From: Enoplolaimus lenunculus
Lineage: Eukaryota
DNA: 64,000 nt
Reading direction: 5' to 3'
Assembly: GCA_030248215.1 (NCBI GenBank)
Contig: JASANG010003752.1
Coordinates: forward strand, 620,001-684,000
Below the pieces are notes generated by a model. The model was not told where the DNA came from and ran no database searches. It saw nothing but the letters and a program-made list of their open reading frames with translations. Position 1 is the stretch's first letter; each line of letters begins with the position of its first letter. This document shows, piece by piece, positions 126 through 58,470 of this stretch. The position numbers and the translations under genes were made by a program.

Positions 126-3100
126 ATGTGGCTAAGCGTAGCATCAGCTACTCTGATAATACTTTCAATTCCACCCTCGTCCGCAAACATCTTACTGACC
201 CTCAAATTTTCGGATTGGAGTTTAGTGAACACGTTTCGTCAAATGTGCAATTCAACTTGTCTCGAATGTCAAACATGTGCCGCGACCAAAACTGCAGAAC
301 TCATCTTAGCGACAGTGATTGACGAACGCCGGGTGACGTCTCATAATGTCAACGATGCTATTGTTGTTCAACCAGAGCATCGAAACGTTCAAAATGCAGC
401 CGTAAACAGCCGTGAGTATTATTGGAAATGGACCGATTTACCGCCGTCGAACGAACAACTGTTACTGGGCGAACCGTCGTTTGTTAATCCTGTTGTTACT
501 AATGTTGAAAGTAGGTCTACACTGTAAAAAAATGGGGAGTCAAATTGACTCTCTCGGAAACAGGTTTTTCCTGACTACACAAATTGAGTCAAATTGACTC
601 TCTCTCGGAAACAGTTTTTCCTGACTCACAAACTGAGTCAAATTTGACTCCGCAAGAATTCACTGTTGACTCTGGCGGAGTCAAATTTGACTCAGTTAGT
701 GTAGTCAGGAAAAGCCTGTTTCCGAGAGAGTCACAATTTGACTCCCCATTTTTTACAGTGTACAAGCAATAATAACATCTATTCGTGACTATACAAAACA
801 TTCATTGCCTTGCTATCTCAACAGTAAACGTGTCAAAAATAAAACGATATTTTAAATGCTTTTCGCGTTTCAAGTAACATTATTTTACATGTTCTTTAGT
901 AGAATGGAAAAGCTGGAAAACGAACAGCTATTCTAGCAAATTTGTGTTAAGTAGTACACACTTTGTAATGTTTATCAAAACGATATTTGAGTATTAATGC
1001 GCCGTACCCAATAATTTGGTCAACGGTGCCACAAAATCTCTTATAGACCAGTCCTATCACCAACTCGTTTTCAAAATGACCTCGCGATAGGCCAGGACTA
1101 TTAGAGATTTTGAACCAACGTTGACAAAACTATTACTGTCTACACAGCAAAAAATGGTGAGTCAAATTGACTCTCTCCGAAATAGGCTCTACGGGTTCTA
1201 CACAAATTGAGTCAAAATTCGACTCCGGCAGAGTCAAATTCGATTCACTGGGTGGCATGTTTGACTCTGGCGGAGTCGAATTTGACTCATTTTGTGTAGT
1301 CCCGTAGAGCCTATTTCGGAGAGAGTCAATTTGACTCGCCATTTTTTGCAGTGTAGGCTACTGTAGAAAATTGTACACACATGCGAGTCCCTAAGTTCCT
1401 AATTGAGTGTTTGTAAATTATATATCCAAAGGTCACCCACACTATGTGTACACCCGGCTGACAATAGAGAGTCCCTCTGAACGGCGTATGCTTTGCCTCA
1501 CTATCGCACATACAGATGCCACTTTGTCAATACGTTATAGAAAGTACAGCGTTTTGTCCTGAGTCTGTCAGAAGGACATTCGCTTATTTCATAACACAAA
1601 GTCTGTTCGAAGGGGCTCTGTTAAGCGATTATACAGAGTCTGTGCGATGGAACTCCTATTGTCAGACACTTTGTCCGAACTGTGTCCACATTGCTTCCAC
1701 ACCCTTCGAAGAGACTACCGCCATAACAGAGTAACTATGTATGCCCTCTGCAAAGTCCAAATATCCCAAAAAACAGTATTGTTTTGTACCGCCCTTGCAA
1801 ACAAGTGGGTGGTCAATTTTTACAGTAGCGTAGACAGTATAACGTGGATGACCCATAATAACGTTTATTTCAAAACGCAAAACACAATTGCTATTTTTAA
1901 CAAGATTGGTTAAATATGCTTTATTAAGTGAGAAAGTAATTTCATGTCGTGTGCACCGTCCCCACATTAATTTCTGATGCTTAGGCTCAGGCAAATGCTT
2001 GCGTACATGTAAGCCTTTTTCTAAACCCAAATTTAAACCTTAGCAGTGCAACTGGAAATAGTTAGTTAAAGCAAGAGTGCATGATCACTCTTTAACAAGA
2101 GTGGACAACTATCGAAATTTGTGCGGTAAAAAAGTACCACCAGGTGTTGCGGTTTGGCCGACGCTCCCACGTTATGTACAGGGGAATCGCTATCACACGC
2201 TATACCAGGGGCACGCCAAATATGCAACGCGTGCCGGGTACATTCTGTCCAACACAGCATGTACCCTGCTGAATATTTTTGTTGGACTCAGCATCATCAA
2301 CTCTTGGTAAAAACGGACAAGATTTATAGAAGGCGAAAGAATTCTTGTAACACGCAATTTTTCGGCGATATTGAATTAATTCTTAAGCTTTTGGGGTGTA
2401 CGTCTTCGTTCGCCTCGCTCAATAATTGTGTTCTTGCCGGAAGCTTAAAGCCGCAGCGTATTACGTGTTCAGGAAAGGGTACAAGAACGTTTACTTTTTT
2501 GATATTTTCAGCGGCCGACAGTCGCGTTGTGATATGGCTTGAAATGTCCGGCGGTTCACGTTTTTCAAGTTGTAAATTCACTACCTCGCATACAGTAGCC
2601 GTCAAAGAACATTTAGGTCAACCAATCAAATCGCATACGCTTGTAGGTGATTGCTTCACCCTTAACGTCGAAATTACCGCAGTTTGTGCGCCGTTCTATT
2701 ACGGCGCGCGTTGTACTCAGTCAGTATCGCCTAGTTTCGCCGCGATGGGAGGCGGTCACAGCGGAAATCCGGGTTTTGTACCGGCAAGCGAAGCGCGAAA
2801 TTACTTTAGTCTATTTGTGATTACAGGTACGTACCTTTACGTTCAACGTGACTGCGGCTAAGGTACCCAAGGCCCCGTCGGACTTGTAAGATGGAGCCCT
2901 TGTGGGGTATCAGTTACGGGCACACCAGCTGATTGAAGAATGGGTACAAATACGTGTGGGCGCAATTGAGAAGCCAAATAGGCGTGAAATATGCGGTACT
3001 TAATTGTATTTGCGTCGAATGCGTAAAACTTATCTGTTTTGCCGGGCGGCTGGTGTTCTAGAGCATAAGGTGGGTGTAGTATCCGCTGTACAGGTCCGCA

Positions 3101-10717: not shown

Positions 10718-13286
10718 TAGTCAACAGGGTAACGATGATCATAGCACAGCAATTTGCTTGTCTATTGATTAAACTGAATGAAACCAACACTGCAGCCTCT
10801 ACTATGTTTATATTATGTTTGTGTAAAACATCAAATCGTAAGCGCAGCCTGGGCGTATTTGGCAGGCATAAAACCACTGGTGTTCAATATTAGCTTTTAC
10901 AGCACACAAAAAAACTTCTTTCGGCGCCAAACAAATTATGCATGCGTAAGTTTTTTGAAAGCAAAATATAACTGGCGTCATAGTAGTTCGTGTTGTTTTA
11001 CTACAGCAAGTTTTATGATCGCCGCTGCTAGCTCATTTCTGCTTGAGGTCAGAAAACAGTTCAAATTGTAGCCGGTGCGGGTCGTGAAAACACCACAGTC
11101 ATAGTCACTGTCTCGGCAGCAGGTCAGCAGGCCGCTACATGCCGCCTTGCATAATTTTCCGAGGCAAACGTGTGGAGAGTACATGGCGTCCAAATCTTCT
11201 ACCGGACCAACCTCATCCCTGGGTTGCTGCCAACGAGTCGGGTTGGATAGACGGTGAAATGTTTCTGAAACGGTGTAACTGGGAGCAAAATACAAGAACC
11301 TATGCTGACGGAGTTTTAGAAAAGCGGCTTCTCTTGTTTGACGGACATTTATCACATCTTTATGTGGAAACAGTTCGTCTGTCTCGTGCTCAAAGCGTGT
11401 CACTTCTCAAGTTCCCTGCGTATACCGCAGAGTTACTGCAACCGGCTGACGTATCGGTGATGAAACCTCTTAAAGATAACTGGTCAAATCTACTAAATCA
11501 GCGCTTAAAAACCGACCGACGGCCACTATCAAAAAAAGAATTCAATGAAAACATTGCGAGAATCTGGCCTACTGGGTGCACAGAGCCGAACATAACCGCA
11601 GGATTCCAAAAATCTGGGATTTACCCTTCTGATCGGTCGAAATATCATTTGCATCGGTTTGACCAGGCATTGCTTGACGGCTATCGTCAGTGGGAGATAG
11701 ACGAAAATACAGATCCCCAAACGTTACATTGGCTCGCATCAATGGGACCGAAGTCGAACCGCTTGATCTGTGCCACAGCAGCCTCACGAACCACAGGTTG
11801 ATAAGGCGTCGCCAGCTCGACCCGAATCACCGCTTGCTGGCCCATCTATTGCACCCACGCCATCTACCAGCTCCACTGGCGGAAACGCTTCAACTCAACA
11901 TTCCGCAGACATGCCGCGCTCCACGTTTCATGCAACATCATCAGCAATGGGTGCACGTCAGTCCGGATCGTTTCAGACGTTCTGGATTCCTGATGGTGTG
12001 GAATTTCAGTTACCTGCTGGAATCGTTCGGCAAGTTGTGCCCTCTGATGTTCGAACACCATCTCCGGCGTCTTCATTTCGCGATGTGATTGCGAAAACAA
12101 TCGCGAGCAATAAAAGCAGCTTGGCGAAAGGACCACGTTATCGAACGGCGCCGAGTGGTTAATCCACGAGGAGAACTGGAGAAGCAGAAGATCTTGCAAA
12201 AAAGAAACGCAAGGGCAAGCAGCCCGGTTCCAAGTTTATGCCTGAGGTCGCTGATGTTGATAACTGAGAAGAGTTTGCAGATGATTATGATGATAATAAT
12301 AATGCATCAGTGGACATAGAAAAAGACATGGAGGCTTTAAGGCGCACAATGGAAGCTCATCACAACTTTTTGGCGTTGATGACGCCGATGTCATAGGACA
12401 ATGGTTTGCTGTCTTATATGGTCGAAAACTCTATTATGGAAAAATTGTGAGCCACGCTTTTCAGAGGGCCAACTTTCTGCTGTCGAACTAAACTGCCTAA
12501 CATACAAGTTCGCTGCGGCCAAAGGAGACGATTACGCTTAGCCCGAAAGTCTCGATCAGGATTCTTTAGCACCCTACAACATTATCGCCGGTCCGCTGGA
12601 TGTTGATCTTCTTAGAGGCCGAGGAACTCGCTATCGCATAATGCAGAACGCTACCATTCGGCAGAACTTAGCAGAAATCATAAAGTTGGATAGAAATGCG
12701 GAATATGACTACCGCCGCAGCATTCAGCAATAAACCAACATCCGACATAACAATCACACATGTAAATAACTGTAAATAATTTTCCGTAGTGCATATATTA
12801 ATCTCTAAATATCATTTTTCGTCGTTTGGTTCCGCTATTCACATCGCTCGAAGCAAAGCTGCTATAACATCAGCCGGTCATCGAGCTCAGCTGCGAGGCA
12901 TGTGCTGGAGAAGTGTGCCCAATCAACAAAAGTGAGTTGGTGTTTAATATTTATACATTGTACATACGCGGTATATATTATTCAGACGGTTATACCCTGA
13001 CAACTGACGCGTTTGGCGTATGCTCTTGGCATGATAAGTTTCTATCAATCATGATCATCGTTACCCCGGGCTATGATCACCGTTACCCAAAAGTGGGGTA
13101 ACACTGATCAGAATAAAGAATTAACCTTATTTTCACAATCGTAATAGTTACGCCAATTTCTTTTTTATCTGTTGCACGTTGAACCTTGCTTGGCCTATGG
13201 CTCTATAAGCGGTAAGTACCTAGCCACTAACTCCCTGACTAGAACACTATTTCCAAAATCTGTATCGCGGTTACCCCTTCTGACTA
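10718..13286 (+). mobile_element. Decayed pogo/Tigger-type (Tc1/mariner superfamily) DNA transposon
   Basis: TA|TAGTCAACAGGGTAAC at left is inverted to GTTACCCCTTCTGACTA|TA at right. Subterminal GGTAAC..TGATCA motifs at 10727 and 13050-13110. Encloses a transposase pseudogene. Confidence 0.75.
11040..12733 (+). pseudogene. DDE_1 (pogo/CENP-B family) transposase, frameshifted and lacking the N-terminal HTH
   Basis: GRENTTVIVTVSAAG / MPPCIIFRGK / NESGWID / LLLFDGHLSH / KFPAYTAELLQPADVSVMKPLK / AGFQKSGIYP; several frameshifts downstream. Confidence 0.9.
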
Positions 13287-16318: not shown

Positions 16319-19300
16319 ATGGCTCGCACAGGTTCTGCGACCAAGCGTGGGAAAAAAGAAATTGCATATGCATGGAGTCAAACAACGAGCAGTCATGGTA
16401 TACCGCATATTGGTAGTGCAGAATCATGGAGCGTCCGAATGTTTTGGATTATTGTTTTTGTAATCGCAACTGCTTTGTTGATTTGGCAAATTAGCTTGCT
16501 AGTCCAAAAGTATTTGGCGTATGATAAAGTAACACAAATGGAGGTAAGTGTTCCAATGCGAAAAAGATTGTAATATGCTGTGTGAGTCCAGCGTTTAGGC
16601 AACTTGCTTGCGGACACTTTTCAAATTGTTTAAAAAATATCGTGCCACCCAGGCATCGACCGGATATTCATTTTACCGGAACCGAAGCCGAATAGTGAAT
16701 TTTGTGCCGGAACCGGAGCCGGATGTTATCCCGATCTAGTATCTAAATTTGTACACTATTGGAAGTATTTGAGTCGTGCAAATATGTTTATGGATTTTAG
16801 ATTCATTTTTGTTTGGATTTTGCAGCCAATGTCAGTGTCCAGTCATGAATTGCTCCGAATTGCAGTCGCTTCAAAATATCTAGTATTTCGACGTGCAAAA
16901 ACGGTTTTATGATTTTTAGAACCACAACCACAAATATCCGGTATCCGGTAGGTTTATACCGGAAACAGATGTCGGATTTTGCCGGATATTAAACGGGAAC
17001 CAGATATCCGGTCGATCCCTAGCGCCACCCTTAGTAATGCAGTGTTTTGTGTTTGCGGCATCGTGCCTAAAAAGCGACTACACGTAAACATTGTATCAAA
17101 TAAACCACAGAACACTGAAACAAATTTCAACGATTATATAACGTGTAATTTCAGCTAATTGTGTTTTAGATTAAAGGCTTCTTGTCATACAACTTTACTG
17201 TAGACAGTTGTGCAATATTTGTTTTAGCTCAAGTTTACTCAACGACCTTTTCCTGCGGTCACCGTATGTAATTTAAATCCGTATCCAAAGAGTCGAGCGC
17301 TGGCGCATGTAGATATAGCATTTTTGGTAAGGGTCTTGTGTTGTTTTATTTTCCTAAATGGTGCCAGGCTGCCAGGTGTGGTTTTTTGTGTGTTTTTGTG
17401 TTTATAATCATAATACCAACCCAAACCAATACTGTCTGTTTTACTTCAACAAATCAAATGTATATAAATGAAGTAAACTAAACATACAAAACCAACTAAA
17501 TTCACAAAAGGGAAATGGAGAGAAAATTCATCTACTTGTTAAGTTGATTATAACGATAACCCCGTGCAGTAACAGCAGTAAATTTTTTTATGTGTGTTGT
17601 CACTGACTGGTTACCATGGTTCAACCGATACAAAAATACCGGAGCCAGATATTTGTATTGCGTAGTTCGATAAAAAGTTAAACTTAGTTACCCTAATTTA
17701 GTACTACTTAGACTTGCGATAGCATGACGTTCGCTAGAAGCGGCTAACTTTGAACACTTCTCAAGTTCAAAAGCTGGCCATTCAACGAATTCGAAAGGAT
17801 TTCTTCTATTTTTTGCAACAGGTGGAACTAGATTTCGGCTATTTTGCTTCTTTTAACTGGGTTTCTTGATGTACATAATTACTAATTTTTATCGTTTCAA
17901 AATTCACAGCGAAATATTGTGATTTTGGTTATAAACAATATACTTATATTGTTAAACTTTTCAGCAACAAATATCTGGTATTGTAGAATACCAAAGCCGA
18001 GTGTCGATATTTTGCTGGTGCTGGGTATCCAATATTGTACCTTACTGGTTACTGTAAGGTTATTAGTGCTGCTCTGCTATTATGCCTTGGATTACCTCAC
18101 ATAATGAGTTTGTCATGTTTTTACAGATGGAACAGTACAACATATCCTTAACACAGTTGAAACAGAATGGAGTGGTTGAACAAAGTGATTTGGGAGAGTT
18201 GTATCAATTTTCGGTAGGGCTATTAACATTGTGTACTATGTTTGCGTTATTCTGATATTAATGGTTAAACATTATTCGCTAGGCACACCGCGAGTTTTGT
18301 GCGTATGTGTGAAGAACCGTATAATCTGTGTAGTTTGTATAAATTCTGTTGACTTAAGAAAATAAAGGATGCGGTTTAGTCGACACCGGAATGCTCTGAA
18401 TTTTTTATTCTGAGTAGATTTCAGTAGTCCTTGAAATGTGGGTTATGGCTAAGACACAACGCGTGCTGGGTACCTTTTCTCACGCAGATGTATTCACTGG
18501 CATATTTTCTGTAAGCTGGAAGCTATTTACTCTAGTTCACGCGTATAATCTAACCACGGACAATTTACTCTAATTCACACGTATTATCCAGCCACAAAAC
18601 GCATGTTTTTGGGCATCTTTTAAATTTTGTCTGTGATGTTTTAGGGTATGACTGATGCAATTGCACTTGAAGCCCAGGCCAAAGAGAACCTTTTATTTAC
18701 TGCGTATTTCAAACCTGAAAGCGAACGTAAAGCGCTTGGATACACTATTGATCAACTGATAACGTCGTGCTCATATAACACGGACGATTGTGTTATGGAC
18801 GAGTAATTAGTTTGCTTTATTATTTTGTTTGTTTGTTTGTTACGTTTTTGAATCAACTTAAATATTGAGTCGGAAAAAACTTGATATGGCAGTTTCAGAT
18901 CAAGTATATCCGCGCTAGGCAACTAGGATCCGACTTTTGTGTCTCAAAATTTGAAGTGGGTTTTTAAACATTGTTGGTTTTCAAAATACGGTTAAAAGTT
19001 TAATACTAGAACATTCAGGGTCTGCGGTTTGGAAATTGCTGGAAAATGACGTTCACAGGAGAGTAAATAGCAACGTGCTTTCATTATATTATTCTATGAT
19101 ATTTCAGTAAATGTCATTAAAAACATTTTAAAAGGGCATGACAGCTAACGCAATCAGAAAGGCTACGTCGTCATCTTGGTTTTAGCGGGGAATCCAGGTT
19201 TGTTCATAGGAGATGCGCATGCGCAATGAGAACAATGAACTTAATTTCGTGAGCGAAGCAGGCGGCAAGCCAAGCGCAATTGTAACACACTATTTTGTTT

Positions 19301-52837: not shown

Positions 52838-53997
52838 TACGTGAATTCATAATAACAGAAAATCTGTAAACGTAATTGGTTTCTGGCACAAACAACTGTC
52901 GCTAAGAGAAAATACGAATAAGAGTTTTAGCAACTCTGATTAGCATAGAAATTAAACCAAAAATCTTTATAAACATATTTTTGGCTATGGACAAAATTCT
53001 TTGTCAAATAAATAGGTTTCGAGGAAAATATTCGATAATTGATGTGCAGATGTAAATGATTGCGCAACTTTTACGTCTTTAGCACATGTGCCGGTATTCC
53101 GGCTATTGCTCTAAAATGGTTTAATGTTTTAGAACTTTTGCATGCTTGAGCTTCTTATGACATCATTATATCATTCAGCATTGAATTTTGTGTGTTTGTA
53201 CTTATAAAAAGTCAAATTTTTGTAAAAAGTATTCTTTTTAAAACTGAGTAAAATTATTTGTCAAAAAGTTCAACGAAATATTCCATTATATACGCTGCTT
53301 GCGGAACTGAAATGAATGATGTTGAATTTCTTACCATTGGACTAACGATTCTTCTGTTATGGTTTTTAAAAACCGGTACTGACATAAAATTTGTTACTTC
53401 CCATTTAATTAATACTATATGGTATTTTTACTTACCCATAGTAAATGTAATGGTATTTTTACTTACCCATAAATGTAATGGTATTTTTACTTACCCATAG
53501 TAAATGTAATGGTATTTTTACTTACCCATAGTAAATGGAATGGTATTTTTACTTACCCATAGTCAATGTAATGGTATTTTTACTTACCCATAAATGTAAT
53601 GGTATTTTTACTTACCCATAGTAAATGTAATGGTATTTTTACTTACCCATAAATGTAATGGTATTTTTACTTACCCATAGTAAATGTAATGGTATTTTTA
53701 CTTACCCATTGTAAATGTAATGGTATTTTTACTTACCCATAAATGTAATGGTATTTTTACTTACCCATAAATGTAATCGGATTTTTACTTACCCATAGTA
53801 AATGTAATGATATTTTTACTTACCCATAGTAAATGTAATGGTATTTTTACTTACCCATAGGAAATGTAATGGTATTTTTAGTTAGATAGATAGATAGATA
53901 AAGTAGAAAGAGGATATGACGCCACTGTGGGCGTTCGCGTAGACAAATTAAAAGCATTGTCCATTGCGACATCCTACGACCATATATACTCTGTGTG

Positions 53998-55830
53998 TCA
54001 CTCTACATTAACCTTTAGACGTTCTGTTTCAACAATAGACTTATAAATTTTCCTTATATCAAGAGATCTAATTTCTCTAACAGATAATGTCTTCCTACCA
54101 AGAAATTGCTCGCGTTTGTCTTCCCACCGTTTGCATACGCATAAAAAGTGCTCAGCGGTCTCACTTACATTGCATTCTGAAGAATTTTTATCTTGAGCTA
54201 CTCTCATTCTAAATAAGTGATAACTTAACCAACAATGTCCCGATAAAATCTGAATACATTGTCTAAGTTTGTCTTTATTAAGCTTTAATAAAAATCTACT
54301 TCTTCATATGTTTGGTTCTTGAATTATTGATCTTGTAAATCTACAGATTTTCTGATTTATCCATCTATATATAAATTTTTTTGTGCATCCATGATGTAAT
54401 TAGTACCGGTTCTGGTCCTATAAATCGTCTACCTGATCCACGCCTTGCTAATTCATCCGCTAAGTCATTACCGATTACATTTGAGTGACCCGGTACCCAC
54501 ACTAGTAAAACTTCATTTAATTGTGAGAGTTCTTTAATTGCTATTCGACACTCGTTAGCTATTTTAGATCTAATTTTGAGACAATGTACAGCTTTCAGTG
54601 CTGCCTGACTGTCTGAAATAATGAGTATTCTTTTTTCAGCAGTATTCCTTCCTGTTAACTCTTCAGCGCATATTTTGATCGCAAGGATTTCTGTCTGGAA
54701 AACTGAAACACTCTCCTAGTGATCGGCTAACCATGAAGTGCTCTGAGAAAATTCCAGCACCTGCTAATTTCCTTGCTGCACCTTGACCGACAGAGCCATC
54801 CGTGTAGCATACTATATCGTCATTCCTTTGAAAATCTCTTATAAAATTATTCCAAAATGCTCTAGATGTAAACAACACATTGCATGTCGGTTCATCTATT
54901 ATTTCACCTGACATGTTATCTGAAGGAAAACTGAGCACATCTAGTTGATTGATCTCAGCCGAGTAATCTCGATGTCTTTTGATACTAAAGACGTTATCGC
55001 CCTCTGATAATTTATTAATTCTGTTTAGTTCTGCAATCCCTTCTTTCATTATCTCAAGATCTATTGAAAGCAGATTTAAAATCGTTTCCATACTTATAGT
55101 CGGAGTCGAGCTAACAGCTCCTGTTATCATCAAACAGGCCATTCTAGATATCTTAATAGCTTTCTTTGCGTAGGTTTTTAATTTAAGTCTGTGCCACCAT
55201 ACCAGTGCTCCATAACAGACTAGTGGTAAAACTACTGTTCTATATATAAACAGAATAGATTTAAGAGTTAACCCCCAAGTCTTCCCTATGGCTGATCGAC
55301 TTATCATAAGCGCTTTAATACTTTTATTAATAACAAACATCCTCTCCTCGCTTATTGCAATTCGTGCTGTCCCAAATTACATGATGGGCATTTGCATCGC
55401 ATCCTATAATTAGTCTAATATTTCTTGTTTTGCAGAAACTTACAGTTTTCTTGAAGGTGTCACTAGGTGGTGCGTCTTTGGAGTCATATGTTAAGTAACT
55501 TGACATGATCCATGTTTCCTTCCCACCATTACCAAAGTCTATTCTTAGTTTAACTGTAGTATTATCTTGATCACTAAAATTTGTCATTTGTACACCTCTT
55601 AACTCCTTCTTCACCAATATTGCTGTCCTGGGTCTTACTCCGCTGTATGTAAACATATCAAAGTCTTTATTTACAAAGCAAGGTCTGTTACTTACGAGGT
55701 ACGGTTCCTGGCAGAGCACAATGTCGACGCGCTGACCCCCGATCTCCCTCGTTGAGCCTGATCTTAGTTTACCTAATTCAACTATAGCCCCTTTGCAGTG
55801 CTGTAGGTTCACCTGTCTAATTTTGATCAT
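53998..55830 (-). pseudogene. ORF2 remnant: AP endonuclease fused by deletion to post-RT region, RNase H and Zn knuckle
   Basis: QVNLQHCK, DIVLCQEPY, IIGCDANAHHVIWDSTNCNKRGE, then a break near 55340 to GKTWGL..YRTVVLPLVCYGALVWW..RMACLMITGAVSSTPT, CYTDGS, SDSQAALKA, WVPGHSNVIGNDLADELARRG, SGHC..ETAEHFLCVC. No RT (YxDD) core; frameshifts present. Confidence 0.9.
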
Positions 55831-55977
55831 GGTGATATCTTATTTAAACTGTAACTAATCTAAGACTTGACTCATCTGAGTTATTAAGAGTCATTGTCTT
55901 AAGAGTCTGTAATTTACTTATCCCTAGTGGGCTCACCCATTCTCCAAAAGGAGACCCGGGTCAGCTCGTAACAGGGT

Positions 55978-56695
55978 CTAAATTGAAGTCATGCTCTTCA
56001 GGTGTGAATTTCCTTGTAGAATTTTCACTGTCATATCTGCTAAAAGCTTCTGACTCCCTTGAGCTGCTTGCTTATAGCTGATTTTGACTCTTTTTCTGTC
56101 CTCTGGAGTTTCCCCTGTCGGACTTCTATTGCGCTTGCTCTGACCTTCCCCCGAAGTAGATGGAATATCTGCCCCCGGAGGTAAGGGTGGGAAATTTCCC
56201 TCTGCAGCTAACTTCTTGTTCTTCTTTTTCTGAGCACCGCTAAGGGCATGGCCTTTCTGTAGAGGCGTTTTCGAGCGACTCTTGGAAGGAAATTTCTTCC
56301 AAAAGTAACTGGATTTCTGCCTAAGCTCAGAAATTTGTTTAGACTGATCAGACTCGCCCTGGCAAGCAGATACAGCAAGCTTTGGAGCTCCCCCTCTGCT
56401 GAACAGGACGAGTCTTGTTCGACTGATAAAGCTACTGCCTGCCCAGGTAGTACAGCAGACGGTACGCCCCCCTACCTGAACAGACATCGTCACTTGTAGT
56501 GACGTCTAAATTCAAAACTAAGGGACTAAGCCCTGATTCTTCGACACCGACCCTCTGAGGTGGACCGGGCGGGACTGCGGCCAACGATTGCCGCCGATTG
56601 TTGTTGTTGTTGTTGTTGACGGCGCCACCGCCTGTCCCGCTGGCATCAGGCACCGCTTCCGAAAATTCATCATCATCATCTTCGTTTTGTTCCAT
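55978..56695 (-). pseudogene. ORF1 (gag-like) N-terminal remnant of the LOA element
   Basis: MEQNEDDDDEF... frameshifts into a basic low-complexity segment LSGAQKKKNKK..SKRNRSPTGETP..SYKQAA, located directly upstream of the APE ORF. Confidence 0.6.
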
Positions 56696-57087
56696 AATAT
56701 GTATTATGTAACTAATAGCTACATGAAGAAAATATATAAAATATAAGATATATATAATATATAGTAAATATATGATATATAGATTTATACATAATGTATA
56801 ATTATGTATGTATATAATTGTATATATAGGAGGGAAGGTGGGAGGGGTGGATTGTATATAATGTGTGGTAAAATTATATAATATAAGATGTGATATATAG
56901 ATATTGATATAATGTGAAATAATATATTATGTGTAGTTGTGTGTTAGTGTTGGAGATATGTGTGATATATATGTATATATAAATATAAATATATTATGTA
57001 TGAGTTATATGATATATAAAGAGAAAAACATCACTAACCCCAGAAAGAAAAATTTTAAGGGGGAAAGGTAATGGTCAGTGATGACCC

Positions 57088-57208
57088 CGGCCATTAGTTC
57101 CCTGAAAATTGGGATGTCCACCAGCGAAAACCGGCTTTTGGACAACCCAATTCGCAGGGATTAAGCCCCCACGCCGCGAGCATTGGCTGGCCGTAGGATT
57201 TGTGGGGG
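57088..57208 (-). ncRNA. HDV-like self-cleaving ribozyme fold at the 5' end of the retroelement
   Basis: Minus strand: P1 CCCCCAC/GUGGGGG, P2 CGGCCA/UGGCCG, P3 GCC/GGC around loop AAUGCUCGC, long P4 UCCCUG..AAUUGGG..UGUCCA / UGGACA.CCCAAUU..CAGGGA, J4/2 CUAA. The nested double-pseudoknot order matches HDV ribozymes. Confidence 0.75.
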
Positions 57209-57310
57209 GTATTGTTACTTACCCATATTAAATGTAATGGTATTTTTACTTACCCATAGTAAATGTAATGGTATTTTTACTTACCCATAGGAAATGTAAT
57301 GGTATTTTTA

Positions 57311-57491
57311 GTTAGATAGATAGATAAAGTAGAAAGAGGATATGACGCCACTGTGGGCGTTCGCGTAGACAAATTAAAAACATTGTCCATTGCGACATCC
57401 TACGACCATATATACTCTGTGTGTCACTCTACATTAACCTTTAGACGTTCTGTTTCAACAATAAACTTATAAATTTTCCTTATATCAAGAG
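57311..57491 (-). mobile_element. 5'-truncated 181-bp 3'-end copy of the same LOA element
   Basis: Matches 53881-54065 with two substitutions and one fewer GATA unit; flanked by TTTTTA on both sides. Confidence 0.92.
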
Positions 57492-58470
57492 TTTTTACTT
57501 ACCCATAAATGTAATGGTATTTTTACTTACCCATAGTAAATGTAATGGTATTTTTACTTACCCATTGTAAATGTAATGGTATTTTTACTTACCCATAAAT
57601 GTAATGGTATTTTTACTTACCCATAAATGTAATCGTATTTTTACTTACCCATAGTAAATGTAATGATATTTTTACTTACCCATAGTAAATGTAATGGTAT
57701 TTTTACTTACCCATAGTAAATGTAATGGTATTTTTACTTACCCATAGTAAATGTAATGGTATTTTTACTTACCCATAGTAAATGTAATGGTATTTTTACT
57801 TACCCATAGTAAATGTAATGGTATTTTTACTTACCCATAAATGTAATGGTATTTTTACTTACCCATAAATGTAATCGTATTTTTACTTACCCATAGTAAA
57901 TGTAATGGTATTTTTACTTACCCATAGTAAATGTAATGGTATTTTTACTTACCCATAGTAAATGTAATGGTTTTTTACTCCCCTTATATCTAGAATTTTT
58001 ACTCTCCTTAGTAACGGTTGCGGTATACTTTACAAAACCGGACGCCGCCGGGTGGTGGTGTGCGGTAATTTTTAATGAAAAGTTTTGCAGCGCCACGTGC
58101 CGGTGCGTTGCGGCGTGCGGCAAAATTTTTACCGCGCCGCGCGCCAACGTGTGTCGGCGTGCGGTTCGCACGGTGGTGTACGGCGGCGCGCAGCGAGTAT
58201 AGCGCAACCCTAATTTCAAACTTAGCCTTTGTTACAATAATTTATACATCAGGTGCGTCTTGTTTCTGCTTGATTGCTTCCCAAGCATTCTTTCCATGGT
58301 CAACATCAACTGTCAGTTGTTTAGTTTAATCAGGTCCACTGCAAAGTTTGTGCTGTTTCATTTCTATTTTGGTAGAGGTCAATAGCTTTTCTTCCATACC
58401 ACTGTTTATTATTTTATATGCCTAAAGCGGAGGCTAAAGCTTAGGTTAAAAGTTCGGCAAAAGTTTTCTA

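Follow-up and report, generated by a model that had tools for sequence, protein, structure and literature searches.

Can a retrotransposon that lies inside a satellite array be cut out of the read-through transcripts of that array by a ribozyme at its own 5' end? This question is raised by a 64,000-nt stretch of the genome of Enoplolaimus lenunculus (GCA_030248215.1, contig JASANG010003752.1, positions 620,001-684,000 of the forward strand; below, the window), in which a broken retrotransposon without long terminal repeats (a non-LTR element) is surrounded by units of a 31-bp satellite. All features of this locus are read on the minus strand and are numbered by their position in the window. 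As judged from sequence and pairing, the first 120 nt of the element are probably a ribozyme of the hepatitis delta virus (HDV) type, which is predicted to cut itself just 5' of C57207 and would free the element RNA from satellite read-through; that the stretch is an HDV-like ribozyme in one or the other of two registers of its first helix, P1, appears highly likely. Ribozymes at the 5' end occur in R2, R4, Dong, Baggins and L1Tc (PMC3774820), and the candidate is likely a genuine additional member of this known kind, the HDV-like 5' processing ribozymes of non-LTR retrotransposons, with a core that lies outside the current descriptors.

An HDV-type fold at the start of the element

Every HDV-type helix is present in the correct order in the stretch 57207-57088 of the minus strand, the element's first 120 nt. 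The order found, P1, J1/2, P2, P3, L3, P3', P1', P1.1, P4, J4/2 and P2' (P, paired; J, joining; L, loop; a prime marks the 3' strand), is that of a nested double pseudoknot, and there is not one mismatch in P1, P2 or P3 (Table 1). The coordinates and the pairing confirm what an earlier note on this DNA had claimed, namely that all HDV-type helices follow one another in order on the minus strand, and they agree with its further description of an HDV-like double pseudoknot in sense orientation which occupies the extreme 5' end of a non-LTR element and has kept its core intact although the open reading frames (ORFs) are broken. The CNRA motif (CUAA, 57097-57094) directly adjoins the 3' strand of P2 (57093-57088). 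Positions 3 and 2 of the L3 motif (C57180 and G57181) are those which we take to form P1.1 in HDV, and the U and G of the same motif, which presumably make the reverse wobble of L3 in the HDV structure, are both present at the spacing of the motif. The P1.1 helix is GC/GC, with G and C swapped in one pair relative to the strict motif and with the other pair as the descriptors expect.

The candidate stretch is also unusually stable (z = -4.18), none of 200 shuffled sequences being as low in energy. P4 contributes -36.6 kcal/mol and P3 together with P4 -39.8 kcal/mol, to which P1 adds -9.0 and P2 -9.8 kcal/mol, and the sum of the HDV helices is approximately the energy of the best nested fold, the nested minimum free energy (MFE) being -61.6 kcal/mol.

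The position of the fold also speaks for this reading. Tandem Repeats Finder (TRF) places the boundary of the satellite array at 57208, with a unit that ends in ...AAUACC. A contig from sequencing run X3 matches the window at 57185-57207 and continues with unrelated sequence beyond, and the match of a contig from run X1 likewise stops at 57207. Because the satellite ends at 57208 and the contigs diverge past 57207, the element is taken to begin with CCCCAC at 57207, which is position +1 of the 6-bp register of P1. The candidate ribozyme begins, in the sense orientation, at this first base of the element; the 5' processing ribozymes of non-LTR elements begin at their element's first base or slightly upstream of it.

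The host element is recognized by its protein homology. In a Pfam scan of six ORF pieces, one frame corresponded to Exo_endo_phos_2 (PF14529, E 1.8e-6) and another to RNase_H (PF00075, E 6.1e-8), and four of the six gave no Pfam match. In tblastn searches with five full-length relatives, the match to residues 4-162 of P0003 (1208 aa) gave way at once to one with residues 762-948, so that some 600 residues are missing at ~55336/55337; these comprise the remainder of the endonuclease and the reverse transcriptase (RT) core (~aa 163-761 of P0003). The protein relatives are 27-49% identical, and those with names are of insect origin (Diaphorina, Cyamophila, Episyrphus, Pieris) and belong to elements with an apurinic/apyrimidinic endonuclease (APE), an RT and an RNase H. 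As far as can be read from its sequence, from which both its orientation and its deletion are apparent, the element is a broken remnant of an APE/RNase H non-LTR retrotransposon. This copy is unable to make an RT of its own, and any movement would need to be in trans.

The ~510 nt of the element's 5' untranslated region (UTR) comprise the candidate ribozyme (120 nt), then a small hairpin and finally a low-complexity stretch that is AT-rich. The hairpin (57073-57086, minus strand; 5 bp, GGUCA/UGACC, with a 4-nt loop) lies directly 3' of the 3' strand of P2, and the AT-rich stretch (56729-57040), which is partly microsatellite-like, occupies the interval that separates the ribozyme from the ATG of an ORF1-like frame (56695).

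Chance, decay and the fit to published descriptors

Two descriptors were used to search for HDV-like folds, both composed after the candidate had been seen, so that the figures obtained with them are somewhat generous. The generic one specifies a P1 of 6-7 bp, J1/2 of at most 20 nt, P2 of 5-6 bp, P3 of 3 bp, L3 of 7-9 nt, a 2-bp P1.1 and CNRA before P2'. On both strands of the window it finds three loci, among which the candidate reaches 49 of 51 possible hydrogen bonds and the others 41 and 35. In 60 windows shuffled in 200-nt blocks it finds 82 loci (mean 1.37 per window), none of them above 41. When the first 130 nt of the element (57% G+C) were shuffled with preservation of dinucleotides, any match at all was obtained in 5 of 20,000 shuffles, the best of them scoring 46 against the native 49, and a match starting at bases 1-3 occurred once in the same 20,000. 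The second descriptor requires the published L3 motif TNCNCGY and permits 0-2 nt before it; the candidate is its sole locus in the window (three overlapping matches), and at least one match anywhere in 128 kb was found in 154 of 2706 block-shuffled windows. All of these shuffle figures ignore the strongest point, that the match begins at the first base of the retrotransposon and on its sense strand. The two other loci of the generic descriptor, 586-730 (+) and 18349-18405 (+), were dismissed as chance matches with scores inside the range of the shuffles; the first of them (score 41) is composed of repeated palindromic GAGTCAAATTTGACTC-like units and looks like a foldback repeat, or one resembling a miniature inverted-repeat transposable element (MITE), rather than a ribozyme.

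A chance resemblance is unlikely. Under such an explanation, a GC-rich 5' UTR with a long hairpin would simply happen to fit the drawing of an HDV-type ribozyme, and it can be argued that loose descriptors of HDV-like folds yield many false positives (~1.4 loci per shuffled 64-kb window with the generic descriptor), that Rfam holds no HDV-type match to the candidate and that the descriptors are post hoc. Against it stand the rarity of any match among composition-matched shuffles (5/20000), where the native score was never reached, the exact start of the match at the retrotransposon's first sense-strand base, and the occupation of their published positions by the L3 motif and CNRA. We consider this explanation very improbable.

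Several other observations weigh against a functional HDV-like ribozyme, as does the late composition of the descriptors. Rfam gave no match in the whole window at gathering thresholds, and at E<=10 no HDV-type family was among its nine matches in 501 nt or its five matches in 129 nt; covariance models cannot score pseudoknots, P4 is long here (60 nt), and the HDV-type models present in the Rfam copy were not looked up. The nested fold of -61.6 kcal/mol is itself an alternative structure, and it contains another P1-like helix, 57198-57193/57172-57167 on the minus strand (UCCUAC/GUGGGG, with two G-U pairs), which uses J1/2 and the first base of P2 and could compete with the active fold. One full copy has been read, and no covariation of the helices was obtained. 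One contig piece carries a 1-nt deletion at 57185, within P3, and an insertion in the 3' strand of P1, and lacks the 5' strand of P1, and another lacks most of the 3' strand of P2; decayed or rearranged copies therefore exist. The TNCNCGY descriptor found no match upstream in seven related metagenome loci (L001, L002, L003, L008, L009, L012 and L013), a null result which says little, given relatives of 30-35% identity on short contigs from which the true 5' ends may be missing. Finally, the descriptors published by the Luptak laboratory (PMC4870747 supplement) require, at +1, a purine that pairs with a pyrimidine, further an L3 motif, TYYHCG(N)Y or TNCNCGY, that follows the 3-bp P3 without a gap, and also GN/RN and CNRA. 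Here +1 is C57207, paired with G57167, and not the purine-pyrimidine pair that these descriptors demand; two A's separate P3 from the L3 motif, where the published descriptors permit no bases (PMC4870747); and UGCUCGC fits TNCNCGY but not TYYHCG, having G at position 2 where a pyrimidine is wanted.

The hairpin of P4 (57103-57156, minus strand) was the source of the sole notable Rfam hit, a weak one to mir-219 (23.7 bits, where the gathering score is 54.5; E 0.0017 in 129 nt), which is probably a chance match to a long hairpin.

The remaining parts of the published descriptors are found in the candidate, P1.1 fitting the GN/RN element and CUAA fitting CNRA (PMC4870747), and the G at position 2 of the L3 motif (G57181) has a matching partner, C57165, in P1.1. 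With C at +1 and AA before the L3 motif, the candidate would have been missed by these descriptors. Our own generic and TNCNCGY descriptors accept the candidate, and the Rfam models and the strict published descriptors reject it. The three oddities which the earlier note had pointed out, the AA before the L3 motif, the GC/GC P1.1 and a C-G instead of a G-U pair at the base of P1, are all real.

Similar departures occur in ribozymes known to cleave. The active L1Tc ribozyme (L1TcRz) cuts its RNA before C1, and its P1 has G-C pairs at the base (PMC3185411), so a purine at +1 is not universal. A survey of trypanosomatids described the Webb descriptor as too restrictive for the orientation of P1 and for P1.1 (PMC4035085). 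R2 ribozymes have a P1 of 6 or 7 bp and a P4 that varies greatly, and an active one, that of Nasonia, departs substantially in its L3 spacing; in R2 the G of the L3 motif is highly conserved, and its change to A abolished cleavage in the Nasonia R2 (PMC3774820). Each departure of the candidate from the descriptors (C at +1, L3 spacing) has an active precedent, in L1TcRz and in the Nasonia R2.

It may nevertheless be that the fold descends from an HDV-like ribozyme and is catalytically weak or inactive, be it in this copy or throughout the family, on account of the C at +1 and the AA of L3, and that it is kept as a structured 5' RNA with a role such as protein binding or cap-independent translation, as has been proposed for the R2 5' UTR. 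Two items of the published descriptors are indeed unmet (PMC4870747), the element has degenerated through a deletion and two or more frameshifts, dead R2 copies whose ribozymes are inactive have been recorded, for instance in the sow bug (PMC3774820), and additional roles of the R2 ribozyme region have been reviewed (PMC6765202). All pairs of P1, P2, P3 and P1.1 are intact, however, the U and G of the L3 reverse wobble and the C of J4/2 stand at the correct spacing, and L1TcRz is active with C at +1 (PMC3185411), which together make such a loss of function rather unlikely.

Other copies of the element were sought in sequencing runs and contig collections. The runs that match the stretch are three DNA runs of one study, no RNA run being listed, and their contig pieces over 56990-57245 are 90-95% alike, none of them reaching 99% and none of those listed spanning the stretch. 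The block 57062-57099, which holds J4/2, P2' and the downstream hairpin, is common to several contigs that differ downstream of it, as if several diverged subfamilies shared the ribozyme end and the hairpin behind it. One contig keeps 57185-57207 and 57062-57085 on either side of a diverged middle of equal length, as would be expected if P4 were free to vary, and diverged or shortened versions of P4 occur in other contigs. In another contig, similar AT-rich sequence is joined directly to 57092, which implies a copy from which the 3' strand of P2 has been deleted. Exact-pattern scans with two core stretches gave no match in metagenome_contigs, genome_contigs or viral_contigs. Relatives from metagenomes amount to 80 loci (348,237 bases), most of them with bacterial-type RTs; the generic descriptor gave 11 matching loci over the whole set of 80, none of the matches being upstream of the ORFs of non-LTR relatives.

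The register of P1 and the satellite at both ends

Where exactly the RNA would be cut depends on the register of P1. The best register joins a 6-bp P1 (57207-57202/57172-57167) to the 2-bp GC/GC P1.1 and places the predicted cut at 57208/57207, the junction of satellite and element. The same ribozyme could instead form a 7-bp P1, CCCCCAC (57208-57202) with GUGGGGG (57172-57166), in which the first C is derived from the satellite; the cut would then fall at 57209/57208, one C of the target would be left on the RNA, and P1.1 would be reduced to C57165-G57181. The additional C-G pair is feasible (the nested energy changes from -48.8 to -51.3 kcal/mol), the 28S target sequence forms the 5' strand of P1 in many R2 ribozymes (PMC3774820), and a single-pair P1.1 suffices for L1TcRz (PMC3185411). 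The generic descriptor, however, returned the 6-bp register alone, since the 2-bp P1.1 is then available; the boundary between satellite and element, like that of the other contig, is at 57207; and in L1Tc, and by citation in R2, the extension of P1 by upstream bases breaks up P1.1 and reduces cleavage (PMC3185411). The longer register is accordingly a possibility to which we assign a low probability. The earlier note had proposed that the target supplies one or two C residues of P1 and thereby couples activity to insertion; this was not borne out, as C57208 could pair with G57166 alone and at the cost of P1.1. Because the extension of P1 takes G57166 away from P1.1, C57208 is read as a competitor at most and not as a required part of the ribozyme.

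The satellite is also tied to the 3' end of the element. The long copy, which carries the candidate ribozyme, ends in (TATC)4, and a 5'-truncated second copy, 107 nt upstream of the candidate ribozyme, ends in (TATC)3; both meet the satellite at an identical phase of its unit. A comparison of the window with itself aligns 57211-57491 with 53781-54065 (96.8% identity over 285 bp), and the 74 nt of satellite that lie 3' of the two copies (53811-53884 and 57241-57314) are identical. Two private variants occur in these units, TAAC for TAAG (seen twice, the TAAG form 27 times) and a TTTCC unit with two matches in the window, both beside copies of the element, and both variants are absent elsewhere among 34 satellite units. 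From the identity of the 74 nt and the two private variants it follows that at least the first two units travel with the 3' end of the element. These co-travelling units may be a part of the element, a copied read-through template, or a block duplicated by unequal exchange, and the array may serve as a sequence-specific target, as a tail belonging to the element, or as both. The minisatellite target-site duplication (TSD) of the earlier note is therefore partly right, although it is too simple a description where 74 nt of 3' satellite move together with the element.

A bolder reading, which we regard as speculative and not very probable, is that the satellite, far from being a passive target, belongs to the 3' end of the element and also provides its landing pad, so that copies insert into one another's tails at a fixed phase and form head-to-tail arrays, the transcripts of which the ribozyme would cut to unit length. 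If this were true, the element would need no promoter of its own and would spread the satellite while moving, and the C at position -1 could switch G57166 between the extension of P1 and P1.1, tuning cleavage to the context of insertion.

Relation to known ribozymes, proposed mechanism and significance

Among the closest known systems is L1TcRz, the first 77 nt of L1Tc and NARTc in Trypanosoma cruzi (PMC3185411, PMC4035085). Both stand at +1 of an APE-RT-RNase H non-LTR element; L1TcRz cleaves before C (C1), has G-C pairs at the base of P1 and a P1.1 whose composition is unlike that of HDV, and upstream bases that extend its P1 compete with P1.1. Compared by description, it differs in its length of 77 nt, its short P4 and its single-pair P1.1, whereas the candidate has a P4 of 60 nt and a P1.1 of 2 bp, and in that its sequence doubles as an internal promoter; the host element of the candidate is, moreover, insect-like by its protein relatives. 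The R2 ribozymes of arthropods and other animals (PMC3774820) are alike in being 5'-terminal in a site-specific element that is co-transcribed with a tandem-repeat target, in their P1 of 6 or 7 bp, P2 of at least 5 bp and variable P4, in that some of them take target sequence into P1, and in the unusual L3 spacing of Nasonia. R2 itself has a restriction-like endonuclease, without APE or RNase H, and is targeted to 28S ribosomal DNA (rDNA), and its J1/4 has 0-2 nt, in contrast to the 5 nt that follow P1.1 in the candidate.

Insertion into a simple tandem repeat, with a ribozyme that cuts, or here is predicted to cut, the 5' junction of the element, is shared with R4 and with Dong, which occupies TAA repeats in Bombyx mori and in which cleavage frees an upstream fragment of repeats (PMC3774820). 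These two belong to the R4 clade and have a restriction-like endonuclease, and their target is a 3-bp microsatellite and not a 31-bp satellite. Baggins1 (LOA) and RTE resemble the present element as promoter-less non-LTR elements of the APE type which rely on read-through and carry HDV-like ribozymes at the 5' end (PMC6765202, PMC3774820). The short internally deleted elements (SIDEs) of R2 are similar in having an internal deletion while retaining the 5' ribozyme and the 3' end (PMC3414825), but they are short and have been shown to be multi-copy, whereas the deleted copy here is 3.3 kb long. In a literature search, no HDV-like ribozyme in a satellite- or minisatellite-specific element was found, the search being limited and not proof of absence.

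A sequence of events can be proposed on the model of HDV-like ribozymes and of R2, R4, Dong, Baggins and L1Tc. RNA polymerase would enter from upstream, by way of either the satellite array or the truncated copy that lies at a distance of 107 nt, and the RNA would fold during transcription, P1 and P3 being formed before P4 and P2. The 2'-OH of C57208 would then attack the linkage to C57207, with a bound Mg2+ and C57097, the latter in general acid-base catalysis, as the catalysts. The element RNA released in this way would have a 5'-OH at its first base, C57207, which would explain the identical 5' boundaries, and could serve as template for target-primed reverse transcription. It could also serve as message, which, being uncapped, would need cap-independent initiation.

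HDV-like ribozymes have almost no conserved sequence, and for this reason each natural example with a well-defined position shows how far the core can vary. If the candidate is active, a C-G pair at the cleavage site can replace the G-U wobble outside trypanosomes too, the L3 loop tolerates two additional bases, and G and C can be swapped in one of the two pairs of P1.1. Since current descriptors and Rfam models exclude all three variations, censuses of ribozymes in insect genomes may undercount. An active candidate would also bring a satellite-specific element with an RNase H into the group of retrotransposons that use read-through and self-cleavage, a strategy best documented so far for the rDNA-specific R2; the known principle is left unchanged by the finding.

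Table 1. Parts of the candidate ribozyme and layout of its locus (positions in the window)
Feature	Position	Strand	Remarks
Last C of the satellite unit (position -1)	57208	-	pairing with G57166 could lengthen P1 to 7 bp and would compete with P1.1
P1 5' strand, CCCCAC	57202..57207	-	pairs with 57172-57167 (5 G-C and 1 A-U)
J1/2, AAAUCCUA	57194..57201	-	
P2 5' strand, CGGCCA	57188..57193	-	pairs with 57093-57088 (6 Watson-Crick pairs)
P3 5' strand, GCC	57185..57187	-	pairs with 57175-57173
L3, AAUGCUCGC	57176..57184	-	UGCUCGC preceded by two extra A's
P3 3' strand, GGC	57173..57175	-	
P1 3' strand, GUGGGG	57167..57172	-	
P1.1, 2 bp (G57166-C57180 and C57165-G57181)	57165..57166 (3' side)	-	L3 side: C57180, G57181
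J1/4, UUAAU	57164-57160	-	
P4, imperfect 60-nt hairpin	57100..57159	-	-36.6 kcal/mol alone
J4/2, AACUAA	57094..57099	-	CUAA at 57097-57094; C57097 is the candidate catalytic cytosine
P2 3' strand, UGGCCG	57088..57093	-	
31-bp satellite, ~16 units	57492..58003	-	upstream of the truncated copy
5'-truncated second copy, (TATC)3 tail	57315..57491	-	last 177 nt of the element
31-bp satellite, 3.5 units	57208..57314	-	between truncated copy and ribozyme; RNA that the predicted cleavage would remove
Internally deleted non-LTR retrotransposon, 3.3 kb, (TATC)4 tail	53885..57207	-	assigned by APE and RNase H homology, tail and satellite flanks
ORF1-like frame	ATG at 56695	-	
N-terminal part of APE	55830-55336	-	
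C-terminal part of RT and RNase H	55337-54371	-	frame changes near 54750 and 54381
31-bp satellite, ~15.5 units	53419..53884	-	3' of the element

Elsewhere in the window, an open frame of 237 aa (11088-11801, plus strand) corresponds to Pfam DDE_1 (E 7.5e-16) and is the remnant of a DNA transposase of the pogo/Tigger type.

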